A stretch of 32,000 bases of DNA from Desulfobulbus propionicus DSM 2032 (GCF_000186885.1 NC_014972.1:210001-242000); one strand, 5' to 3'. Counted from the stretch's first letter, positions 4,015 through 18,422 are shown. Translations and numbers: made by a program. Notes: generated from the letters alone by a model not told the origin.

Positions 4015-4893
4015 TCATGACTTGAGAAACGTATCGAGCGTGGCCTTGAACATCGGCTCGAAGTGTTGATTGAACGTGCGATGGGCCACGCCATAGAAGT
4101 CGAGCAGTGGCTTGACCCGGCGCCCGGTACGGCCAGTGAGTAGCACAGGGCGCAAGCCTCTGGCGCGAATGACGGATTGAATTTGAGAGCCCTCCCAAAA
4201 GACGGAACTCTGTCCAAACCATTTGACGAACCTGCCGGTGCGTGGATCACGGACCGCTTGCTTCCTGCTTCCTCTTTGGTACGACTTGGAACGGTCAAGG
4301 AAGGTGCGCTTGGTCTTGGCGCCGAACCCAGCCCCAGTCTGAAATCGTTGGTACACGCCCAAGGGCAGGTTGCCGCGCTGTCGACGATCAATAACCACAT
4401 AGTCCCGTTCCTTGGTGTTGCGGCGACGGGAACGGTCGGTGATGTTGGCTGAATATCCGGCACTGGTTTCCGCTTTGCCAAGCACGGAGAGGATCTGGCG
4501 GATCTGCCCGGGGGAAACGTTGCCGTATTGGTTGAGCTTGGCACCCAGTGCCGGTACCAACTCGCCCTCACCAATGGCTCGTTCAAAGCCCTTCAGTTTG
4601 CGCTGCCCTCCATCCACCTGGGGTACGAGGTAGTGTGCTCCCATTCGACCAGGTTCCTTGAACCAGACAGTGGCCTTGAGATCGCTCTTCGTGGCTGGAG
4701 TAAGTTGGAGGGAATTGAGGGTGTAGCGGGTGGGATTATCAAAGACGGATTTCATTTCCGCGACTTCCGCTTCCTTGACGAGTTTGCCAGCCTTGTTCAG
4801 GGCAATGGCGCAGGCCCGGTGAGCCTTGCCTGGAAACGCGGCCAATGCTGCGGCCACTTCTTTTGATCCGGAAACAGCAACGGTCAATTCCAT
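4015..4893 (-). CDS. Phage-related protein, tentatively tail-completion (lambda gpZ / HK97 gp10-like)
   Basis: The N-terminus ...AAALAAFPGKAHRACAIALNKAGKLVKEAEVAEMKSVF... and the basic central stretch (RSRRRNTKERDYVV) recall gpZ-type proteins. The start is moved to the ATG at 4893, which follows a strong GAGGAGG. The functional call is weak. Confidence 0.6.
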   Translation of the reverse strand: MELTVAVSGSKEVAAALAAFPGKAHRACAIALNKAGKLVKEAEVAEMKSVFDNPTRYTLNSLQLTPATKSDLKATVWFKEPGRMGAHYLVPQVDGGQRKLKGFERAIGEGELVPALGAKLNQYGNVSPGQIRQILSVLGKAETSAGYSANITDRSRRRNTKERDYVVIDRRQRGNLPLGVYQRFQTGAGFGAKTKRTFLDRSKSYQRGSRKQAVRDPRTGRFVKWFGQSSVFWEGSQIQSVIRARGLRPVLLTGRTGRRVKPLLDFYGVAHRTFNQHFEPMFKATLDTFLKS

Positions 4894-9412: not shown

Positions 9413-9490
9413 TTTGATGGGATATTCCGAGGCATGATACCTAATTTTCAACAATAACAATCTGGCGGACAAGCCGCAGATGTTCACGTT
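9413..9490 (+). repeat. Copy 1 of a roughly 75-bp direct repeat containing an imperfect hairpin
   Basis: ...CATGATACCTAATTTTCAACAATAACAATCTGGCGGACAAGCCGCAGATGTTCACGTT aligns with 10426-10500. The hairpin core is 9461-9480. Confidence 0.7.
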
Positions 9491-9696
9491 GGACCTTAAA
9501 TTTTCTTTCAAAAGATGTGGTACATTCACTATCCCCGTTTAGTTTGTGCGTATCGAAATATTATCCATAAATCAAATGATTATGGTTGCTGAGTTGGTAG
9601 TTGTAATGTCTGGCCTGTGGATGAAGTGATGAGAATTGCTTAAGTAGTCTCTTGCTAACGATTGACAATAGTATCGGAGCTCGTTACGGTGTATGC

Positions 9697-9978
9697 ATGA
9701 TAGAAAGTTTTGCATGTGGTGAAACTGAAAAAATTTGGAACAACGTGTTCTCCAAAAAGCTTCCAGGGGATATTCAGACCGTCGCTCGGCGGAAGCTGAT
9801 TATGCTCAACGCGGCAGCAACTTTAGACGATCTAAGAATACCGCCCAGGAATATGCTAGAAAAACTTTCTGGGGACAGGGATGGGCAGTACTCAATCAGG
9901 ATTAACCAGCAATGGCGAGTATGCTTCTGTTTTGAGCACGGAGTAGCAACTCAGGTAATGATTGTCGATTATCACTAA
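9697..9978 (+). CDS. higB: HigB-type toxin (RelE/ParE superfamily, plasmid-killer family)
   Basis: MIESFACGETEKIW...AATLDDLRIPPRNMLEKLSGDRDGQYSIRINQQWRVCFCFEHG.A..V.IVDYH is the HigB signature. The internal ATG at 9697 is used. Confidence 0.9.
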   Translation: MIESFACGETEKIWNNVFSKKLPGDIQTVARRKLIMLNAAATLDDLRIPPRNMLEKLSGDRDGQYSIRINQQWRVCFCFEHGVATQVMIVDYH

Positions 9979-9990
9979 GAGGTCAAGGGT

Positions 9991-10326
9991 ATGGTAAATT
10001 TAATACCGCTAGAGCATCCGGGCGTGATACTCTTCGAAGAATTCATTGAACCGTTAGGGCTAACGGCTTACAAAGTAGCAAAGGACATTGATATTCCCCA
10101 AACCGCGCTTGGCGAAATCATTAAAGGTAAAAGAGGAATATCCGCACAAGTAGGCCTGAAGTTGTCTAAATACTTCGGAATGTCTGAAGAGTTTTTTGTC
10201 AAAATTCAGATGCGATATGACATCGACAGGACGAAAGTTGCTCAACATGAGTCTTTAGGGAAAATCATTCCCTTCCGCCCAAAGCCTAAAGAGCCTCCAG
10301 CGATTGAGAATCTTAAGGAGGCTTAA
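9991..10326 (+). CDS. higA: HigA antitoxin (XRE-family HTH)
   Basis: HPGVILFEEFIEPLGLTAYKVAKDIDIPQTALGEIIKGKRGISAQVGLKLSKYFGMSEEFF is typical of HigA. The gene lies 12 nt downstream of higB. Confidence 0.9.
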   Translation: MVNLIPLEHPGVILFEEFIEPLGLTAYKVAKDIDIPQTALGEIIKGKRGISAQVGLKLSKYFGMSEEFFVKIQMRYDIDRTKVAQHESLGKIIPFRPKPKEPPAIENLKEA

Positions 10327-10352
10327 TTGTCTTTCCATAACGAAAAATCATA

Positions 10353-10390
10353 AACTCCAACATGTCAGTGCGGCATATTGGAGTTTTTTT
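10353..10390 (+). terminator. Rho-independent terminator after higA
   Basis: AACTCCAA (10353-10360) pairs with TTGGAGTT (10378-10385), followed by a T5 run. Confidence 0.65.
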
Positions 10391-10425
10391 AATCCTTTTC
10401 AAATATTTTTTAGCAAATTATGTGC

Positions 10426-10500
10426 TTTGAAGGATTCGGGGGGACATGATACTAAATTCCAACAATAACATCCTACGGACAAGCTGTAGATGTTCGCGTT
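10426..10500 (+). repeat. Copy 2 of the roughly 75-bp direct repeat with hairpin
   Basis: ...CATGATACTAAATTCCAACAATAACATCCTACGGACAAGCTGTAGATGTTCGCGTT. The hairpin core is 10471-10490, with one fully compensatory pair change relative to copy 1. Confidence 0.7.
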
Positions 10501-10949
10501 TTCAGGTCATATATCTCCAGTCAGTCATGACTTATTGGAAAAGTATTAACCATCGGGAATTGAATCTTTCCCGCTATTTTATACCGAAACAGCCTTTTTG
10601 TAGACTTAATGGAAGGATATCCGATTTCTGGTTATCACCCCAAATTGCATGATATCCAGTTAGCTAATACCATAAAACGCCGATTTCCTGACACCCTGGT
10701 TTGAAATAGTGAGTGATAGCCAGAAACCATATAATAACTTGTTAAACGTAAATAAAATGATTGAACCATCCATGCAAGAATGTGTATATAAAGATATTCC
10801 TTTAGGAGGAAGGCGGGTGCCCTTAGGATCCAGTGTAATATCTGGAGAGATGGACGGCAGGAAGATAAAGCTTATTGCTGCCGAATGTAGCGACTTACTT
10901 TTACGTGGTTGTACCCGTGAAGCCCAGCGCAATGCGTTGGGCTTTTTTT
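10501..10949 (+). ncRNA. Candidate structured non-coding RNA or leader upstream of the RT (5' end undefined)
   Basis: No ORF here has an ATG plus SD. Hairpins are at 10615-10621/10651-10657, 10792-10798/10837-10843 and 10855-10860/10878-10883, plus a terminal 10-bp stem with a T-run at 10921-10949. This matches the position of the ncRNA in retron/DRT-type RT systems. Confidence 0.4.
10921..10949 (+). terminator. Intrinsic terminator-like hairpin 13 nt upstream of the RT start codon
   Basis: AGCCCAGCGC (10921-10930), loop AAT, GCGTTGGGCT (10934-10943). That gives 10 bp with one G.U pair, followed by six more T (10944-10949). Confidence 0.65.
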
Positions 10950-10961
10950 ATTGATGGGGGA

Positions 10962-12458
10962 ATGAGCTTGGAAAAAGATCTTATTAAAACAATTGGTGAA
11001 GAGGCGAAAAAGCTGTCTCAGAGGCATCACGCTTATCACAATACACTAGAGCTGGAGCATATAAGAAAAAGTAATAGGGTTTCTAACCCTGGAGACAAAG
11101 AGTTAAAAATACCAGCGTATTGGTCATCGGAAAAGAAGTTCAACCCGTTTTACGTCCATAAAAATCGTCGTCAAATCGCTCATTCAATTGCAAAAAAAAT
11201 ACAAAATGGGACCTATGAACCAAACCCTCCGCAAAAAATGGAAATTCCAAAAGCATCGGGTGGTTCAAGGACCGTAACTATTTACCAAATACCAGATGCT
11301 GCTGTATCCACATTAATTTATCAGCAACTTCTCTCAAAAAACAAACATCGTTTCAGTTCTTTTTCGTATGCTTATCGAAATGACAGAAATGTACATTTTG
11401 CAATTCAAGATATCGCAATTGAACTGAAAGAGCTATCTAGAGTTTTTGTCGCTGAATTTGATTTTTCGAAATTCTTTGATTCAATTAATCACTCTTATCT
11501 CTATCGTCAATTCAATGAAAATGGTTTTTTCATCAGCGAAAGAGAGGATAGCGTGATCAAGTCATTTCTCAAAAGCAAAAATGTTGGCATACCACAAGGC
11601 ACATCAATTTCTCTTTTTTTAGCGAATATTGTTTGTTGGAAATTAGACAAGGGGCTTGAACAGGTAGGATTGAAGTTTGCGCGATATGCTGATGATACTG
11701 TTATTTGGTCGCATGATTACCAAAAAATAAGCATGGCATATGATATCATAAGTAATTTCTCAAAAGAAGCTGGAGTCGAGATTAATGCCAAAAAATCAGA
11801 TGGGATTAGCTTGCTATGCAGGAAAGATATGCCTTCTGAGCTTGCACAACGTAAGGAAGAAATTGACTTTCTTGGTTACTCTATTTCAGTAGATAACGTT
11901 TCAATTAAAAAATCTTCAGTAAATAAAATAAAACGACAAATAAGTTATACATTATACAAGCATCTAATAAAACCGTTGCGCGGAAACAAGCTAGTTGCCA
12001 TCAAAATACCAGCAAACAACAAAGACACACATTTGTTGAGCGCAATATTAGAAATAAGAAGATACCTTTATGGCAACCTAAATGACCAAATGATAGCAAA
12101 TTATTTGAATGGAAAAAGTAATAGAATTTTTTTCAAAGGAATAATGAGTTTTTATCCGCTCATAAACAATGAACAACAACTCAAAGAGCTTGATGGGTGG
12201 TTAGTGACAGCAATTTTCAAAGCCATACGTATAAGGTCGAAACTACTAAAGAAATGGAATTTTAACAGAGACAATAGTTTTCCCTTTAATATACCTCATA
12301 AAGATCTCACGACAGCGTTTAAACAACAAAAAGTAAAAGGGAAAAAATTACTCCAAATTCCAAGTTTCTTCACAATATACAAAGCTCTCAAGAAAGGGGT
12401 TACTGACAAAGGTATAGCAGGGGTAATGAATCCAACATCAAATGGCTATAATTATTAA
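10962..12458 (+). CDS. Reverse transcriptase, defence-associated type (unclassified UG/Abi- or retron-like)
   Basis: RT motifs are present: EIPKASGGSRTVTIYQIPDAAV, SYAYRNDR, FDFSKFFDSINH, GIPQGTSISLFLANI, and RYADDTVIW (YADD at 11685-11696). A C-terminal extension of about 170 aa has no recognisable domain. The start is set at the ATG at 10962 (MSLEKD...) rather than the track start at 10875, which lies inside the hairpins. Confidence 0.9.
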   Translation: MSLEKDLIKTIGEEAKKLSQRHHAYHNTLELEHIRKSNRVSNPGDKELKIPAYWSSEKKFNPFYVHKNRRQIAHSIAKKIQNGTYEPNPPQKMEIPKASGGSRTVTIYQIPDAAVSTLIYQQLLSKNKHRFSSFSYAYRNDRNVHFAIQDIAIELKELSRVFVAEFDFSKFFDSINHSYLYRQFNENGFFISEREDSVIKSFLKSKNVGIPQGTSISLFLANIVCWKLDKGLEQVGLKFARYADDTVIWSHDYQKISMAYDIISNFSKEAGVEINAKKSDGISLLCRKDMPSELAQRKEEIDFLGYSISVDNVSIKKSSVNKIKRQISYTLYKHLIKPLRGNKLVAIKIPANNKDTHLLSAILEIRRYLYGNLNDQMIANYLNGKSNRIFFKGIMSFYPLINNEQQLKELDGWLVTAIFKAIRIRSKLLKKWNFNRDNSFPFNIPHKDLTTAFKQQKVKGKKLLQIPSFFTIYKALKKGVTDKGIAGVMNPTSNGYNY

Positions 12459-12565
12459 TAATAATTGTCTAGCAAATGCATTAACGCAGACGGGGATAAC
12501 GCTGGCGGCGCTAGGGCGGTCAAGTTCATTGGCCCGCTGGTTGTGCTAGCCGTTGGCTTAGCAAA

Positions 12566-13393
12566 ATGAAAGAAAATAGAATACTTCGCGACGTCGAGAA
12601 ATACGTCAAATCGTATTTGAATACACATGTCACTTCTCCCTGCGTACAGATGCTTCGCAACGACCCTCACTGTCACCTTCGGGTCGTGAGCATTCTTTCC
12701 CGTGTTCGCTACCTGTCTGAGCAAATCCTTCGCTACGGTTGTGAGGTAGACAAGGCCCATCTCAGTAGTCTATCGCGAGATGAGCTCGAACGACGGGTTC
12801 AAGTGTTGACAGACTTTATTGAAAGTGAAAATACCGAAACAAATCACGAAGCCAACGGTTATCTAATGACAGGCAGTTCCCAGAAGCATCTCATCGCGTA
12901 TGTTTCGCGCGAGTTCAACTGGGTCATTGTCTCGATCATGTCGGCTTCCTATATCAGTGCGCTTGTCCTCACGAGATCAGTGTTCGAACTTTTGGTCGGC
13001 GTGGCTACGCGAATGGAAGGTGGAATGAAGGATCGTGTGGACAAAATCACATTTCTTGAAGCAAGTGAACGTAAGCAGATTCTGAAGCTCTGGAATCGAC
13101 TTTGCGGATGGGGGCACCCATACGGTCGCTGGGTCAAAGAAATATGCCCCATATATATTCAACATGAGCCATTTTTTCATAGCCGCCTTTGTGGCCTCTG
13201 TCTGGATGAGTTATGCAACGTGCTAGATCTCTATGCTGTCACGGCACTATCCAAATACGAGATTCCCATTGACCCCCAGTGCTTGCCAATGCAAGACCCA
13301 ACAGGGATACTGGCTGGTCTTGGCATGCTCTCAAGACGACTGGAAAATGGAAACACTAAAAAGGCCAACAAGCCGGATGCAGACGACGGCTGA
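12566..13393 (+). CDS. Hypothetical protein (275 aa) with a possible HEPN-like Rx5H motif
   Basis: A clean ORF co-directional with the RT. The helical-looking core ...YISALVLTRSVFELLVGVATR...KQILKLWNRLCGWGHPYGRW contains R178-x5-H184 (nt 13097-13117). No family is recognised with certainty. Confidence 0.7.
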   Translation: MKENRILRDVEKYVKSYLNTHVTSPCVQMLRNDPHCHLRVVSILSRVRYLSEQILRYGCEVDKAHLSSLSRDELERRVQVLTDFIESENTETNHEANGYLMTGSSQKHLIAYVSREFNWVIVSIMSASYISALVLTRSVFELLVGVATRMEGGMKDRVDKITFLEASERKQILKLWNRLCGWGHPYGRWVKEICPIYIQHEPFFHSRLCGLCLDELCNVLDLYAVTALSKYEIPIDPQCLPMQDPTGILAGLGMLSRRLENGNTKKANKPDADDG

Positions 13394-13434: not shown

Positions 13435-15120
13435 ATGTCCGACGATCAAACTGACGAACAACACGCCTACGAGGCGCTACTCCAGCGTCGACTGCAGATC
13501 CTAAAGAAGCAGTTCGATGCCGGGAAGGTCCATATCGCCGAGGGGCTCCAGGTGATCGGGAGCCTCAAGCGCGTCAGGTACGCCGCTGACGGCACGGTCG
13601 ATCTATCAACAGTGGACGGCCTAGTGCGCTCGATGGCGCTTGCTGTCGAGGCGATGCACGACAGAGAGGAGATGAAGGACTCTGCGTCTCTCGCGCAGAT
13701 TCAGACCGAGTACTTCGACTTTTTGGAGAAGAACTTCGGTCACTTCTTCAAGGTCATGGTCGAACGCGGTCTCACCCCGCACAACGCAGGACGAGCACTT
13801 TCCAGGACTTCATCCACCGTCGCAGAGTTGACCCGAAACCTCCCTGAGTTCTTGGCTGCAATCGAGGGCTACTGGAGTGCCGCAGGCCCAATAGCGATTG
13901 CGCATGTGGAGGACATGCACGACGCACTTAAGGGCGTATTCGGAGGCGACTTGTTTCCATCGCCTGAGGAGAATATCGCTTCAAAGTGCTCGCTCTACAC
14001 AGACACACTCGTGCTGCCTGATCCATTCTTGCGCACGAAGCACATGTTCGAGCGACTCGGAGATGAGAGGAAAGCGTACTACCTCATCAAGCACGCTCTG
14101 AATCTGTTGCAGTACCGTAATCTTGCGTGTGCCGACGTGAGCCCGCCCATCGTCGTAGTGCTACCCGATGTCTCTGCTCTGGAAACGGAAGAGAAGGAGT
14201 TCTTCTATCGGCTCGGGCAGGATGACGCCCTCATTCACGGCGCTCGCGTCTTCGGGAGGCGATTCGAGACCTTTGACGAGCTCTTGGAGTTCTGTCAGCA
14301 ACTAGACACCATCGAGCGAGCTGTGGCAGCAGTTTCCGAGCCTGAGCGAGTTCTGTTTGATACGGAGTGGGAAGGCTCACTCCCGGAGCAGTTGAAACGG
14401 GCCACAAAGATGGAGGCGTACTCCGCCGTCGTTGGTACCACCAATCCTGGCGTCATCCTGGCGTCGCAGGCCCTGGGGCGCATGAGCACTAGCAATGAAC
14501 TCCTGATCAAGGCTCGTCGCCTTCGTGGCACTCCGATTATCGATGCTCCAACGTCATGGCAGTACTTCGTGTGGAAACTTGAGTACGACTCTTTTCAATC
14601 CGGTGAAGCAGAAGGGCTGCGTGACCTTCACACGGTGCGTGGATTGCAGACTCTTGCTGCGAACGAGATGCGATGGCTGGGCAGAGTGCCCCCGGAAGCC
14701 CTAATCGAGGTGCGCAAGGCTGGTGCGCTGGGGGAAGTTCGCGCAATCCTCGGAAAGGGAGTGGAGGAACTGGCCACGGTCAATCCCTCGAATTTCCACA
14801 GAACAAGCGACCTCGTCTTCGACAACATTCATGCAGCCTTTGCAAAGCATCAGGAGAACATGGATGCACTGGCGGCGAAGAAGTGGAAGTTCGCGGGGAG
14901 CGACATCGGATCGTGGATAGTAGTTGGGTCTTTGGCGGCAACGGCTGCCGCGACCGGCACACCAGCTTGGGGACTCGCCGCTCTGGCAGCCGATCAGTTG
15001 CTGAAAGCGCCCAAATTACGTGAGATACCGAAATCGATCAAGGCGCTGGCAAAGGAAAGTCAACAACTGAAGCGATCGCCGGTTGGCCTGCTCTTCAAGT
15101 ACAGCAAGAGAGGGGGCTAA
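13435..15120 (+). CDS. Hypothetical protein (561 aa) with a C-terminal hydrophobic hairpin
   Basis: A long clean ORF starting 41 nt after the previous gene. I can see no NTPase motif. The C-terminal GSDIGSWIVVGSLAATAAATGTPAWGLAALAADQLL (nt 14896-15003) could form two short membrane helices. Confidence 0.75.
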   Translation: MSDDQTDEQHAYEALLQRRLQILKKQFDAGKVHIAEGLQVIGSLKRVRYAADGTVDLSTVDGLVRSMALAVEAMHDREEMKDSASLAQIQTEYFDFLEKNFGHFFKVMVERGLTPHNAGRALSRTSSTVAELTRNLPEFLAAIEGYWSAAGPIAIAHVEDMHDALKGVFGGDLFPSPEENIASKCSLYTDTLVLPDPFLRTKHMFERLGDERKAYYLIKHALNLLQYRNLACADVSPPIVVVLPDVSALETEEKEFFYRLGQDDALIHGARVFGRRFETFDELLEFCQQLDTIERAVAAVSEPERVLFDTEWEGSLPEQLKRATKMEAYSAVVGTTNPGVILASQALGRMSTSNELLIKARRLRGTPIIDAPTSWQYFVWKLEYDSFQSGEAEGLRDLHTVRGLQTLAANEMRWLGRVPPEALIEVRKAGALGEVRAILGKGVEELATVNPSNFHRTSDLVFDNIHAAFAKHQENMDALAAKKWKFAGSDIGSWIVVGSLAATAAATGTPAWGLAALAADQLLKAPKLREIPKSIKALAKESQQLKRSPVGLLFKYSKRGG

Positions 15121-15240
15121 CCCCTCGCTCGAGCCGACCCGCTACGGCGTGCAGCTCAACTCGAACGTTAGGAGTCACGATATCTCCTGTAAATAGTGAC
15201 TTCAACAATCCCTATCCTTTCTCTTGATTATTGGATTAAA

Positions 15241-16275
15241 ATGAGTGTTCGCCCCCATCCCACCAAATCAAAAAGTGAACCTGGGAAATGGTGGGTCATT
15301 GATATCGGTCGGGGCAACCAGCGGGAGCGCATCACCTTTAACGGTTCGTACGAAGAGGCCTGGAGGTATGAGCGATCCATACGGCAGCAACCCGACCACT
15401 TGGTTGAGGGATCCGCTCCCAAAATAAAGGATGTGGTGACCTTATTCCTTGAATGGTACCGGACGGAGAATTCCATTAACACGGTCAATGATATGCGGTT
15501 TTGTCTCGATAATCATATCATTCCTTGGTTCGGTAATTTCCAGCCGAAACAGTTGACCATCGCTCTGTTCAATAAATTCAAGGCGGATTTGCTTGAACGA
15601 GGTTTGGCACCTGTCACAATCAACAAGAATATGAGTTACCTTTCCAGCCTGTTGAAATGGGCTTCGGAGCACGGATACTGCCAGCCGTTGGCATTCACCA
15701 TTCCCAGGTTTTCAAAAAAGAAAACAACAGCCGAACCGGTTCAGCCGTTGACCCGGCGGCAACTGGATGCGCTGTATGAATGCCTGGATCCAGAGTATCG
15801 GCTGCTTTTTCTGTTGATGGCGGACCATGGTCTCCGGAAGGAAGAGGCCCTGAATCTGCAGGTTGAAGATATCGACGAAGCGCGAAAGACGATCCGGGTT
15901 TATGGGAAGGGGAGTAAGTACAGAATCGTTCCTTTTCTGTCCGTCAGGTTTGAAGAGGAACTGAACAAAGTCCTTTCGGAACGGCTTGAAGGCTTCCTGG
16001 TCGTCAATCCGGCAACCGGAAAACCGTATTATTCAATTAGGAAGGTGTTAACCCGGGCAGCGAAAAAGGCGGGATTAAGCCGGCAGGTGTACCACCACCT
16101 GCTGCGCCATACTTTTGGATCCCTGGCGGCCGAGGCCGGGATGAACCCTTACGCGTTGCAACGGATCATGGGACACAGCAATATAGAGACAACGAACAAG
16201 ATCTACACCCATGTCGGCCTCGATTTCGTCGGTGAAGAGGCCCGTAAAATTCGTGAGCAAGGGGTAGGGCAGTGA
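15241..16275 (+). CDS. int: Tyrosine recombinase / phage integrase
   Basis: The C-terminal catalytic region reads ...LRKEEALNL..., HHLLRHTFGSLAAEAGMNPYALQRIMGHSNIETTNKIYTHV (R...HxxR...H...Y). The ATG at 15241 is preferred. It is adjacent to the tRNA-fragment att site. Confidence 0.9.
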   Translation: MSVRPHPTKSKSEPGKWWVIDIGRGNQRERITFNGSYEEAWRYERSIRQQPDHLVEGSAPKIKDVVTLFLEWYRTENSINTVNDMRFCLDNHIIPWFGNFQPKQLTIALFNKFKADLLERGLAPVTINKNMSYLSSLLKWASEHGYCQPLAFTIPRFSKKKTTAEPVQPLTRRQLDALYECLDPEYRLLFLLMADHGLRKEEALNLQVEDIDEARKTIRVYGKGSKYRIVPFLSVRFEEELNKVLSERLEGFLVVNPATGKPYYSIRKVLTRAAKKAGLSRQVYHHLLRHTFGSLAAEAGMNPYALQRIMGHSNIETTNKIYTHVGLDFVGEEARKIREQGVGQ

Positions 16276-16389: not shown

Positions 16390-16436
16390 AAAGGCCAAAA
16401 GCTCAAGAATACAGAGCTTTTGGCCTTTTCTTTTTC
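16390..16436 (+). terminator. Rho-independent terminator downstream of the tRNA fragment
   Basis: AAAGGCCAAAAGCTC (16390-16404) pairs with GAGCTTTTGGCCTTT (16414-16428), followed by a T-rich tail. Confidence 0.8.
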
Positions 16437-17022: not shown

Positions 17023-17044
17023 GTTATATTTTTAAAAATATAAC
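17023..17044. promoter_or_regulatory. Perfect 22-bp AT-rich palindrome upstream of the cytochrome operon (possible ModE-type box)
   Basis: GTTATATTTTT/AAAAATATAAC is preceded by a C, giving CGTTAT. It shares the CGTTAT...ATAAC arms with the palindrome upstream of modE. Confidence 0.4.
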
Positions 17045-17187: not shown

Positions 17188-17586
17188 ATGAGATTTAATG
17201 CGGTGCACGGGGCCATTCTTGCTCTCTGCTGGACATGCATTGCTGCCTTGCCGGTATGTGCCACGGGTGGACAAGGACCAGAACACGTGGTCATCCAATC
17301 GACGATTGACAAGGAAAAGGTGGCAAAGCCAGCCTACCTACCGCACCACAACCACCAATGGCTGGAATGCGATGGCTGCCATCACAGCAAAGGACCGGGC
17401 GGTAAAATGGAGGACTATGTGGCTGGGCAAAAAATTAAACAATGTGAAACCTGCCACAATAGCAAGGCAGTCATGCCAGAACCAATAGCGACGCTTAAAC
17501 GGGCCAGCCACAGGCTCTGCATGGAATGCCACCTCCAGCAGGACAAAGATCTCGCCAGGTGTGGTGTCTGTCATACCAACAAATAA
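17188..17586 (+). CDS. Tetraheme cytochrome c3-family protein
   Basis: It has a signal-like N-terminus and four CxxCH motifs (CDGCH, CETCH, CMECH, CGVCH) in about 130 aa. AGGAG lies 8 nt upstream of the ATG at 17188. Confidence 0.85.
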   Translation: MRFNAVHGAILALCWTCIAALPVCATGGQGPEHVVIQSTIDKEKVAKPAYLPHHNHQWLECDGCHHSKGPGGKMEDYVAGQKIKQCETCHNSKAVMPEPIATLKRASHRLCMECHLQQDKDLARCGVCHTNK

Positions 17587-17627
17587 CCGCTTCTCGTGAT
17601 GAGAAAATTGTGCGAATAGGAGCCACC

Positions 17628-18422
17628 ATGGATTCTGAAAACGAAAAGAGACTGAAAGGAGTTTCCCGACGGCAATGGCTGCTTGGGACCGGGGCGTTGG
17701 CAACAACCGCTGCCCTGGCGCATCTGGGTGGGGTGTTGCAACCGGCCCGTGCCATGGGCGGCAACACCGAAAAATGGCCGTGGCCCTATGAAAAGCTCGA
17801 TCCGATGGCCACCGCTGAACTTGCGTATAAAGAATGGTACCGAGTGTATTGCGGTTGCGCGGTTATCAGTAGCGTCTTCACCCAGCTACGAGAAAAGGTC
17901 GGCGAACCCTACGTTTCCTTTCCCATCGATGCCTTTGTCTTTCTTGAGGGTGGCGTGGCCAGTTGGGGCACGATCTGCGGCTCAAATGCTGGCGCGAACA
18001 TCGTCGCCAACCTGATCATCGGCCCGCGAATTGCCGGTGCTGATGAGGGGCACCTGATCGGAACGGATATCATGCAGTGGTATTGCGAGACAGCTCTTCC
18101 TGTTTTTAAACCGAAAGAGCCTGCCTTCAAGGGCAACATTCCGCAGACCATCAGCGAATCGCCACTCTGTCATGTCTCGGTCGGTAAGTGGATGGCGGTT
18201 GCCGACAAAACGGTCGGCAGCCCAGAGCGCAAAGACCGTTGTGCGCGGGTGACGGCCAGCGTGGCCTATCACCTGGTGGAGCTGCTCAACGACTGGAAGG
18301 ACGGCAAATACGAGGAAGAGGGGGACTGGGCCCCGATCTCCGATCACGGCATCAATGCCCAACCCAATTGCATGGAGTGCCACGGCGGCGGCGTACCCGA
18401 GGCCCCAAGGAAGAAAGGCTGA
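17628..18422 (+). CDS. Tat-exported redox protein (C_GCAxxG_C_C / split-Soret-cytochrome-like) with a C-terminal CxxCH
   Basis: A twin-arginine signal (SRRQWLLGTGALATTAA) is present, along with cysteine motifs YCGCAVIS, WGTICGSNAGA and LCHVSVGKW, and a C-terminal CMECHGGG. The start is set at the ATG at 17628. Confidence 0.7.
   Translation: MDSENEKRLKGVSRRQWLLGTGALATTAALAHLGGVLQPARAMGGNTEKWPWPYEKLDPMATAELAYKEWYRVYCGCAVISSVFTQLREKVGEPYVSFPIDAFVFLEGGVASWGTICGSNAGANIVANLIIGPRIAGADEGHLIGTDIMQWYCETALPVFKPKEPAFKGNIPQTISESPLCHVSVGKWMAVADKTVGSPERKDRCARVTASVAYHLVELLNDWKDGKYEEEGDWAPISDHGINAQPNCMECHGGGVPEAPRKKG

Follow-up and report, generated by a model that had tools for sequence, protein, structure and literature searches.

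DRT9 and related reverse transcriptase systems

The anti-phage system DRT9 (UG28) consists of a reverse transcriptase (RT) together with an RNA that is non-coding (ncRNA) and encoded immediately upstream of it (PMC12483538; PMC12489045). The RNA co-purifies with the RT, has been resolved by cryo-EM and templates the product (PMC12483538; PMC12489045). It contains six stem-loops and an irregular loop with a universally conserved run of four uridines (U4), numbered U123-126 in Salmonella and U124-127 in the E. coli construct of 188 nt (PMC12483538; PMC12489045). Deletion of one U or alteration of the U4 abolishes defence, and replacement of U4 by A4 changes the product from poly-dA to poly-dT (PMC12483538; PMC12489045). 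SL3 is the only stem for which scrambling has a mild effect, and the purified RNA lacks SL6, for which the authors suggested a role in transcription termination (PMC12483538). In the E. coli RNA, C94 and G114 form an inter-protomer base pair (PMC12489045). On the protein side, Y25, in an N-terminal helix, stacks on the ncRNA near the template, the YADD box serves catalysis and the C-terminal tyrosines serve protein priming (PMC12483538; PMC12489045). Other published features of the system are protein-primed poly-dA synthesis, assembly of RT and ncRNA into a tetramer or hexamer, and abortive infection. In work by Song and colleagues (Science, 2025), phage NrdAB reportedly raises dATP and activates DRT9, and the product is said to be a possible sequestrant of phage SSB. 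Host ExoI is reportedly blocked by phage gp58 (Tang et al.).

Three other systems invite comparison. DRT2 (UG2) has a sister RT (PMC12489045) and an upstream structured ncRNA that acts as scaffold and template, with the template beside the closing helix (PMC12483538); it differs in that the enzyme is a monomer that copies a template of ~120 nt by rolling circle and so builds a gene. Retron msr-msd RNAs likewise adjoin an RT, serve as template and scaffold and function in phage defence, but retrons prime from the 2'-OH of a branching G, whereas the DRT9 literature describes protein priming. DRT10 (UG17) shares with DRT9 a protein-primed mode in which a short template is reused by realignment (bioRxiv 10.1101/2025.10.16.682844), and an analogy to DRT10 and to telomerase-type repeat addition is drawn in the discussion of PMC12483538. 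Unlike DRT9, DRT10 makes tandem heteropolymeric repeats and has a SLATT effector.

The DNA considered here, referred to as the window, is a stretch of 32,000 nucleotides from Desulfobulbus propionicus DSM 2032, with positions counted from its first letter. The reading preferred below, held with a probability of roughly 0.9, is that positions 10796-10949 encode the ncRNA of a two-part DRT9 (UG28) anti-phage system working by the full scheme set out under the proposed mode of action.

The reverse transcriptase and its gene

The gene at 10962-12458 (+ strand) encodes a protein of 498 aa that is, on its sequence, a full-length DRT9/UG28 enzyme. The PADLOC Drt9 model matches it with an E-value of 3.5e-216 and 716.7 bits, residues 4-496 aligning with profile positions 2-487 of 488. 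The best non-Drt9 RT score is 128 bits, from a generic RT model; RT_UG17 gives 103 bits, Drt2 gives 89 bits in two fragments and the retron RT models give at most 76, which places the protein outside the retron clade and likewise sets it apart from DRT10. RVT_1 is the only Pfam match, and both the RT-only architecture and the length agree with the ~499 aa expected of DRT9. The protein is 57% identical, over its full length, to the DRT9 RT of solved structure, a single sequence represented by six PDB entries (9ioa, 9iob, 9nlv, 9nlx, 9vku and 9vma), with which it shares its length, Y25, YADD and the C-terminal YxY. Among 41 aligned homologues no substitution is seen in the YADD box (242-245) or at Y496, and Y25 and Y498 are nearly invariant; the C-terminus of the window protein reads ...NGYNY.

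At E <= 1e-30 a homology search with the RT yielded 1763 proteins; identity is 58-100% among the best 120, whose sources include Pseudomonas, Aeromonas, Vibrio, Enterobacter, Methylophilus, Electrothrix and Flavobacteriales. No close homologue was found by tblastn in a phage collection at E <= 1e-80.

The start codon was placed by comparison. An in-frame TTG lies upstream of the ATG, at 10875, and all homologues start at the MxLE position that corresponds to 10962. Gene callers over-extend the RT reading frame through the ncRNA in the window (10875-10961), in the E. coli reference locus L002 (2243-2341) and in P0001; over-long calls include one of 517 aa, made for a protein with the same sequence as the window RT, and the 532-aa E. 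coli RefSeq protein WP_211092143.1, where 498 or 499 aa would be right.

A homologous RNA upstream of DRT9 enzymes

The comparison drew on DNA of about 27 DRT9 loci, taken from genomes, metagenomes, viral contigs and plasmids. Within the 260 nt upstream of each RT start, common blocks recur in all DRT9 loci and in the same order: a 5' hairpin, A(A/G)CGG, ACUUACUUUUAC, CCGUG, a GC-rich hairpin, a T-run and the start codon. A covariance model, R1, was built from a MAFFT alignment and RNAalifold structure of five sequences, the window and the four relatives nearest to it (RT identity 76% for L001, 75% for L097/P0020, 75% for L101/P0015 and 76% for L100/P0013). R1 has a sole significant match in the 32-kb window, at 10794-10948 with 168.7 bits, on the same strand as the RT gene and directly ahead of it. 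Each of the 21 DRT9 loci whose upstream DNA was long enough gave a full-length match directly ahead of the RT (E <= 0.001, the E-values being rough owing to a shortened calibration). With filters off four further DRT9 loci were matched, and the same setting gave matches upstream of the DRT9 RT on a Bacillus cereus plasmid (L110, NZ_CP137769.1, 1332-1481, E 8e-10) and a Hymenobacter plasmid (L111, NZ_CP053906.1, 1286-1445, E 6e-8), both of which keep the same ncRNA plan, UUUU and terminal hairpin included. Six loci with other RT types gave no match at E <= 1.

The model also detects the characterised RNA. The reference locus L002 is that of E. coli XJ5.2, whose RT begins MKLEQQIQRV, like the PDB sequence; the RT there starts with the ATG at 2342 and the UUUU occupies 2277-2280, so that nucleotide 1 of the RNA falls at 2154/2155. 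The R1 match there, 2153-2329 (E 6e-8), lies within 2 nt of the 5' end determined by RIP-seq, and model position 3 corresponds to nucleotide 1 of the published RNA, so that by homology the window ncRNA begins at about A10796. A megablast comparison of the locus with E. coli genomes gave no match, and a distant BLAST search led to the reference DRT9 locus, which then served as the anchor of the comparison.

Structure is conserved along with position. Positions 10794-10949/50 fold more stably than any of 200 shuffles (z -3.4 to -3.9). In an alignment of 21 loci, which was fitted to R1 and in which pairing is therefore somewhat inflated, 90.9% of cells pair, against 37-49% when the partners are slid by 1-3 columns; both partners have changed in 42 of the 50 pairs, and not one of 500 shuffles attains any of these measures. 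Independent RNAalifold runs on MAFFT alignments returned the same architecture for the window clade and for the reference clade. The covariation among homologous loci and the fold stability proposed as checks in the first-pass annotation were thus both found.

The RNA of the interval is therefore a DRT9 ncRNA, a further example of the system described in 2025 and no new kind of RNA. The first-pass annotation had envisaged a discrete template or scaffold RNA ending at a terminator, which agrees well with the homology to the published ncRNA. It had left the type as non-retron, either DRT2- or DRT9-like or new; the DRT9 assignment was correct, and the DRT2 (89 bits) and novel options fall away. 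As to the covariance searches that it proposed, the published ncRNA locus was found with R1, while Rfam had no match at the gathering score over the whole window, and an E-value scan of 9500-13000 gave only a chance miRNA match (E 0.64). Rfam 15 apparently holds no DRT9 ncRNA model.

The main value of the locus accordingly lies in annotation: with no Rfam model, and with gene callers routinely running through the RNA and so extending the RT reading frames, DRT9 loci carry wrong annotations that omit the RNA partner. In addition, the locus contributes a divergent DRT9, with 57% identity to the studied enzyme, in a low-GC island of an apparently high-GC host. It leaves the understanding of the DRT9 mechanism unchanged.

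Extent of the structured region

Initially all of 10501-10961 had been taken for a structured leader. This holds for the last ~155 nt and fails for 10501-10793, which folds no better than its shuffles (z -0.76) and is without counterpart in relatives except for the identical contig. When 10330-10800 was compared with the collected loci and with plasmids, the identical contig and an internal repeat were the only matches. Perfect 7-nt inverted repeats number three in 10501-10961, against 1.93 +/- 1.78 in dinucleotide shuffles, 163 of 500 of which reach three. Two of the stems first proposed dissolve on comparison: at 10615-10621/10651-10657 the complement exists, at chance level and outside the conserved RNA, and at 10792-10798/10837-10843 only 45% of cells pair in relatives, the same as in shuffled and slid controls. 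The latter candidate also competes with two conserved hairpins. From the fold z-scores, the repeat counts, the stem tests and the lack of similarity upstream it was concluded that the structured RNA is confined to the last ~155 nt of the interval.

These results bear directly on the possibility that the whole of 10501-10961 is one long structured 5' leader with its promoter upstream of 10501. Such a leader would accommodate the unusually long gap of 636 nt between higA (which ends at 10326) and the RT, as against ~290-390 nt in relatives, and it would include the 7-bp stem at 10615-10657. However, the poor folding of 10501-10793 and its lack of a counterpart, together with a conserved -35 box at 10761-10766 and an R1 match that begins only at 10794, make a long leader very improbable.

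The DRT9 reading places the promoter just upstream of the ncRNA. A putative sigma-70-type promoter on the + strand (10761-10790) comprises TTGAAC (10761-10766), an 18-nt spacer and TATATA (10785-10790). As a match it is weak (4/6 and 4/6, with the 18-nt spacer) and a simple promoter scan does not call it; 16 of 20 DRT9 loci have a TTG-containing, -35-like box at this distance, 26-30 nt ahead of the conserved 5' end. We infer that TTGAAC...TATATA is probably the ncRNA promoter, with a start near A10796.

Architecture of the ncRNA

The ncRNA, of about 154 nt (10796-10949, + strand), was delimited by the covariance model, folding and covariation. It opens with SL1 (UUCCUU / UAG / GAGGAA, 10797-10802/10806-10811), a hairpin found by RNAalifold in which 92.7% of cells pair and five of six pairs have changed on both sides. 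A long-range helix follows, with 5' strand GCGGGU (10813-10818) and 3' strand ACCCGU (10913-10918), which encloses the internal hairpins and the template loop and is probably the published SL2. Its strands pair in 99.2% of cells, and between loci C-G is exchanged for U-A, and A-U, G-C and U-A replace one another. Within it lies a variable hairpin (AUCCAGU / UCUGGAG, 10828-10834/10841-10847), all seven pairs of which have changed on both sides, and then an SL5-like hairpin (10855-10863/10875-10883) with arms CGGCAGGAA and UUGCUGCCG and loop GAUAAAGCUUA. The latter includes the stem first noted at 10855-10860/10878-10883, which proves genuine, grows to 9 bp and is conserved, covarying on both sides in nine of nine pairs; the near-palindromic ATAAAGCTTAT remarked upon earlier lies in its loop.

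The template loop ACUUACUUUUAC occupies 10893-10904, and its columns are invariant or nearly so in 22 loci. Its U4, at 10899-10902, aligns with U123-126/U124-127 of the characterised RNAs and lies, as in DRT9 generally, in a loop beside the closing helix; by this analogy it is the predicted template for poly-dA. A helix predicted around the template (10890-10898/10905-10912) is nearly invariant, and thus uninformative for covariation, and cryo-EM shows an irregular loop there.

The resemblance to the RNAs of Salmonella enterica and E. coli DRT9 (SenDRT9, EcDRT9; PDB 9ioa, 9nlv, 9vku) extends over the whole molecule. Both they and the window RNA lie just upstream of the RT on the same strand. 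A 5' hairpin and a long-range helix that closes the core are common to them, as are an SL5-type hairpin whose loop is YAAAGC-like, the U4-containing ACUUACUUUUAC loop and a CCGUG strand; at the 3' end, SL6 and a U-tract stand 12 nt ahead of the RT start. They differ in length, 155 nt in the window against ~177 nt in the reference, by one hairpin and in host. The stem-loops of the window RNA are SL1, the long-range helix, one variable hairpin, the SL5-like hairpin and SL6, whereas members of the reference clade (L002, L083, L007 and L008; 174-181 nt) have two hairpins, SL3 and SL4, between the long-range helix and SL5. As in the window, the majority of the other loci (145-163 nt) have one hairpin at this place, and L013 has more. 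The one-hairpin form is the commoner in this sample, in which 4 of 21 loci have two hairpins and one has more. Variability of the SL3/SL4 region fits the mild effect published for SL3 scrambling (PMC12483538).

Judged from the aligned sequences, Pseudomonadota, Bacillota and Bacteroidota all retain the U4 template loop, the long-range helix and the spacing between terminator and start codon. The distinction between these constant features and the variable SL3/SL4 region helps to define a minimal DRT9 RNA for engineering.

Two observations concern the SL5-like loop. U10866 aligns with C94 of the E. coli RNA, and the base aligned with G114 is A10889. The positions of the inter-protomer pair are C/G in 13 loci and U/A in five of six window-clade loci; L101 has C/A and L003 has U/U. 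The U/A combination may represent a single compensatory switch that keeps the RNA-RNA contact between complexes. The loop (10865-10875) also contains a 6-nt palindrome, AAGCUU, which could permit loop-loop dimerisation. A kissing-loop role was considered and set aside, for the palindrome occurs only in the four closest loci (the window, L097, L100 and L101) and is probably incidental.

The terminator and expression of the RT

SL6 (10919-10949, + strand) is an intrinsic terminator with a 12-bp stem (10919-10930/10934-10945), an AAU loop and U7. The terminator seen ahead of the RT in the first pass was real: its 10-bp core, 10921-10930/10934-10943, extends to 12 bp with one G-U pair (-19.4 kcal/mol), and T7 (10943-10949) follows. 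SL6 and its U-rich tract thus occupy the 3'-proximal position they have in DRT9 RNAs. Across 21 loci 96% of its cells are paired and 11 of 12 pairs have changed on both sides, the sequence itself being unconserved, and such retention of structure without sequence is the pattern expected of a terminator. The structure is kept in 20 of the 21 loci. A 12-nt spacer (10950-10961) with a Shine-Dalgarno-like GGGGG (10956-10960) separates the terminator from the start codon, a gap that is 12-19 nt in 17 of 18 DRT9 loci.

In L011 (2368-2512) the SL6 hairpin is missing, a U-run and then the start codon coming straight after the long-range helix, and in L014 (732-895) the T-run stops 2 nt short of the ATG. 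SL6 is common, then, but not universal in DRT9 loci.

The short gap has consequences for expression of the RT. Twelve nucleotides are too few for a separate promoter, a simple scan found no promoter-like site within the ncRNA on the + strand, and the gaps elsewhere are 12-19 nt; the RT is thus probably expressed by read-through of the terminator, as the first-pass annotation had proposed.

A strong terminator 12 nt ahead of a start codon is also the classic layout of an attenuator, which raises the question of whether the element is solely a cis-acting attenuator or riboswitch-like leader that governs RT transcription, rather than a trans-acting RNA partner. Against this, the homologous RNA co-purifies with its RT, is seen by cryo-EM and templates the product (PMC12483538; PMC12489045). 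Moreover, the arms of SL6 vary freely, while their possible alternative partners are invariant or covary in other helices, so that no conserved anti-terminator is apparent, and Rfam offers no match. A purely cis-acting role is very improbable.

Under the DRT9 reading itself, SL6 might be more than a device for forming the 3' end, namely a conserved control valve, although this seems unlikely. On such a view RT mRNA would apparently arise only by read-through of SL6, with the complete ncRNA as its 5' UTR and the Shine-Dalgarno sequence 7-12 nt past the terminator. The 12-19 nt spacing in 17 of 18 loci and three phyla fits a constraint of this kind, and no published test of SL6 as an RT control valve was found in the cited DRT9 literature. 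Were the valve real, binding of the RT to its own leader, or termination altered by infection, could feed back on RT synthesis and so set the ratio of RT to ncRNA.

Other reverse transcriptase RNAs and small reading frames

The order of ncRNA and then RT is common to DRT9, DRT2 and retrons, and DRT2 is the sister family, so that a DRT2-type RNA (a rolling-circle template for a de novo gene) or a retron msr-msd has to be weighed. The comparison runs against both. The Drt9 score of the RT (717 bits) far exceeds those of the Drt2 and retron models, and in place of a UG2 RT with a ~280-nt ncRNA and a ~120-nt template loop the locus has a 155-nt RNA with a 4-nt U template. As the first-pass annotation had found, there is no a1/a2 pair, no inverted repeat longer than 7 nt bracketing the RNA. 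A retron is further distinguished in that DRT9 requires no effector gene. Both assignments are barely tenable.

The notion that the interval encodes a small protein (an 81-aa ORF at 10709-10954 on the + strand or a 90-aa ORF at 10660-10932 on the - strand) has negligible probability. One + and one - frame do run without a stop through the RNA in the window and in the three relatives nearest to it, and ORFs of 52-80 aa are called at this place in relatives, but in L001, L004, L003, L012 and L002 stops or shifts interrupt the frames, the RNAs differ in length by amounts not divisible by three, and the base changes are compensatory ones inside stems. No conserved small protein across the interval is supported.

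Proposed mode of action

If 10796-10949 is the DRT9 ncRNA, transcription would begin near A10796, from the TTGAAC...TATATA promoter about 30 nt upstream. SL6 would stop most transcripts and yield a discrete RNA of ~154 nt, from which SL6 might later be removed; the mature ncRNA may accordingly lack SL6 and have its 3' end near 10918. The minority of transcripts that read through would serve as RT mRNA.

The subsequent steps are modelled on the E. coli and Salmonella system. The RT would bind the RNA, with SL1, the long-range helix and the internal hairpins forming the scaffold of a higher-order RT-RNA complex. Upon phage infection, the U4 in the template loop would be copied repeatedly by slippage, and the resulting long poly-dA, primed from the C-terminal tyrosines Y496/Y498, would bring about defence through abortive infection.

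Genomic context

The DRT9 unit lies in a stretch of low GC content, 36-45% at 9-13 kb against 55-68% in the flanks, and looks horizontally acquired. Immediately upstream is a toxin-antitoxin pair, a HigB/RelE-like toxin at 9652-9978 (PHROG 3066, E 1e-29) and a HigA antitoxin at 9991-10326 (TIGR02607, 79 bits, above cut-off), with its own terminator at 10352-10386; SNase-like and zinc-ribbon genes are found farther upstream. Downstream, an ORF of 275 aa directly follows the RT (12566-13393) and is succeeded by one of 561 aa (13435-15120), neither matching a Pfam, PHROG or PADLOC family. Beyond these are a tyrosine recombinase gene (15196-16275) and, in the flank, a split-Soret cytochrome c-like ORF (17526-18422), a resemblance that hints at a host akin to Desulfovibrio.

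The gene order of the window recurs on two metagenome contigs. Elsewhere the neighbours of DRT9 loci differ (SIR2/HerA, 5'-nucleotidase, Rep), which fits DRT9 as a self-contained two-part system. The 275-aa and 561-aa ORFs accompany the RT on both of the identical metagenome contigs and are absent from other DRT9 loci. GC content over 13-15 kb is 54-58%, as against 36% for the RT, and the N-terminus of the 561-aa ORF is weakly Avs1c-like (33 bits, cut-off 70).

The higB-like/higA pair is flanked on either side by a direct repeat of ~60-80 nt (9414-9491 and 10427-10501; 83% identity over 58 nt, E 1e-8), the second copy of which ends exactly where the interval 10501-10961 begins. The core of the repeat forms a long bulged hairpin (AACA-TCTG-CGG / ACAA / CCG-CAGA-TGTT), and where the arms of one copy depart from those of the other the changes compensate each other. 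Two unrelated viral contigs contain parts of it, 25-51 nt long and 88-100% identical, at 4475-4509 (-) in L107 and 11853-11903 (+) in L108, where they sit between unrelated ORFs (NERD nuclease, DUF6988, metallophosphatase). These two genuine extra copies share no gene neighbour or related integrase. Candidate roles for the repeat are those of a recombination site, an operator or a small RNA.

Further repeats occur toward the edges of the region. A 40-nt direct repeat with 87.5% identity (6661-6700/7164-7203) lies near the left edge of the low-GC region, and two palindromic stretches (16390-16428 and 17023-17044) lie downstream of the recombinase gene; these elements may be island boundaries or terminators.
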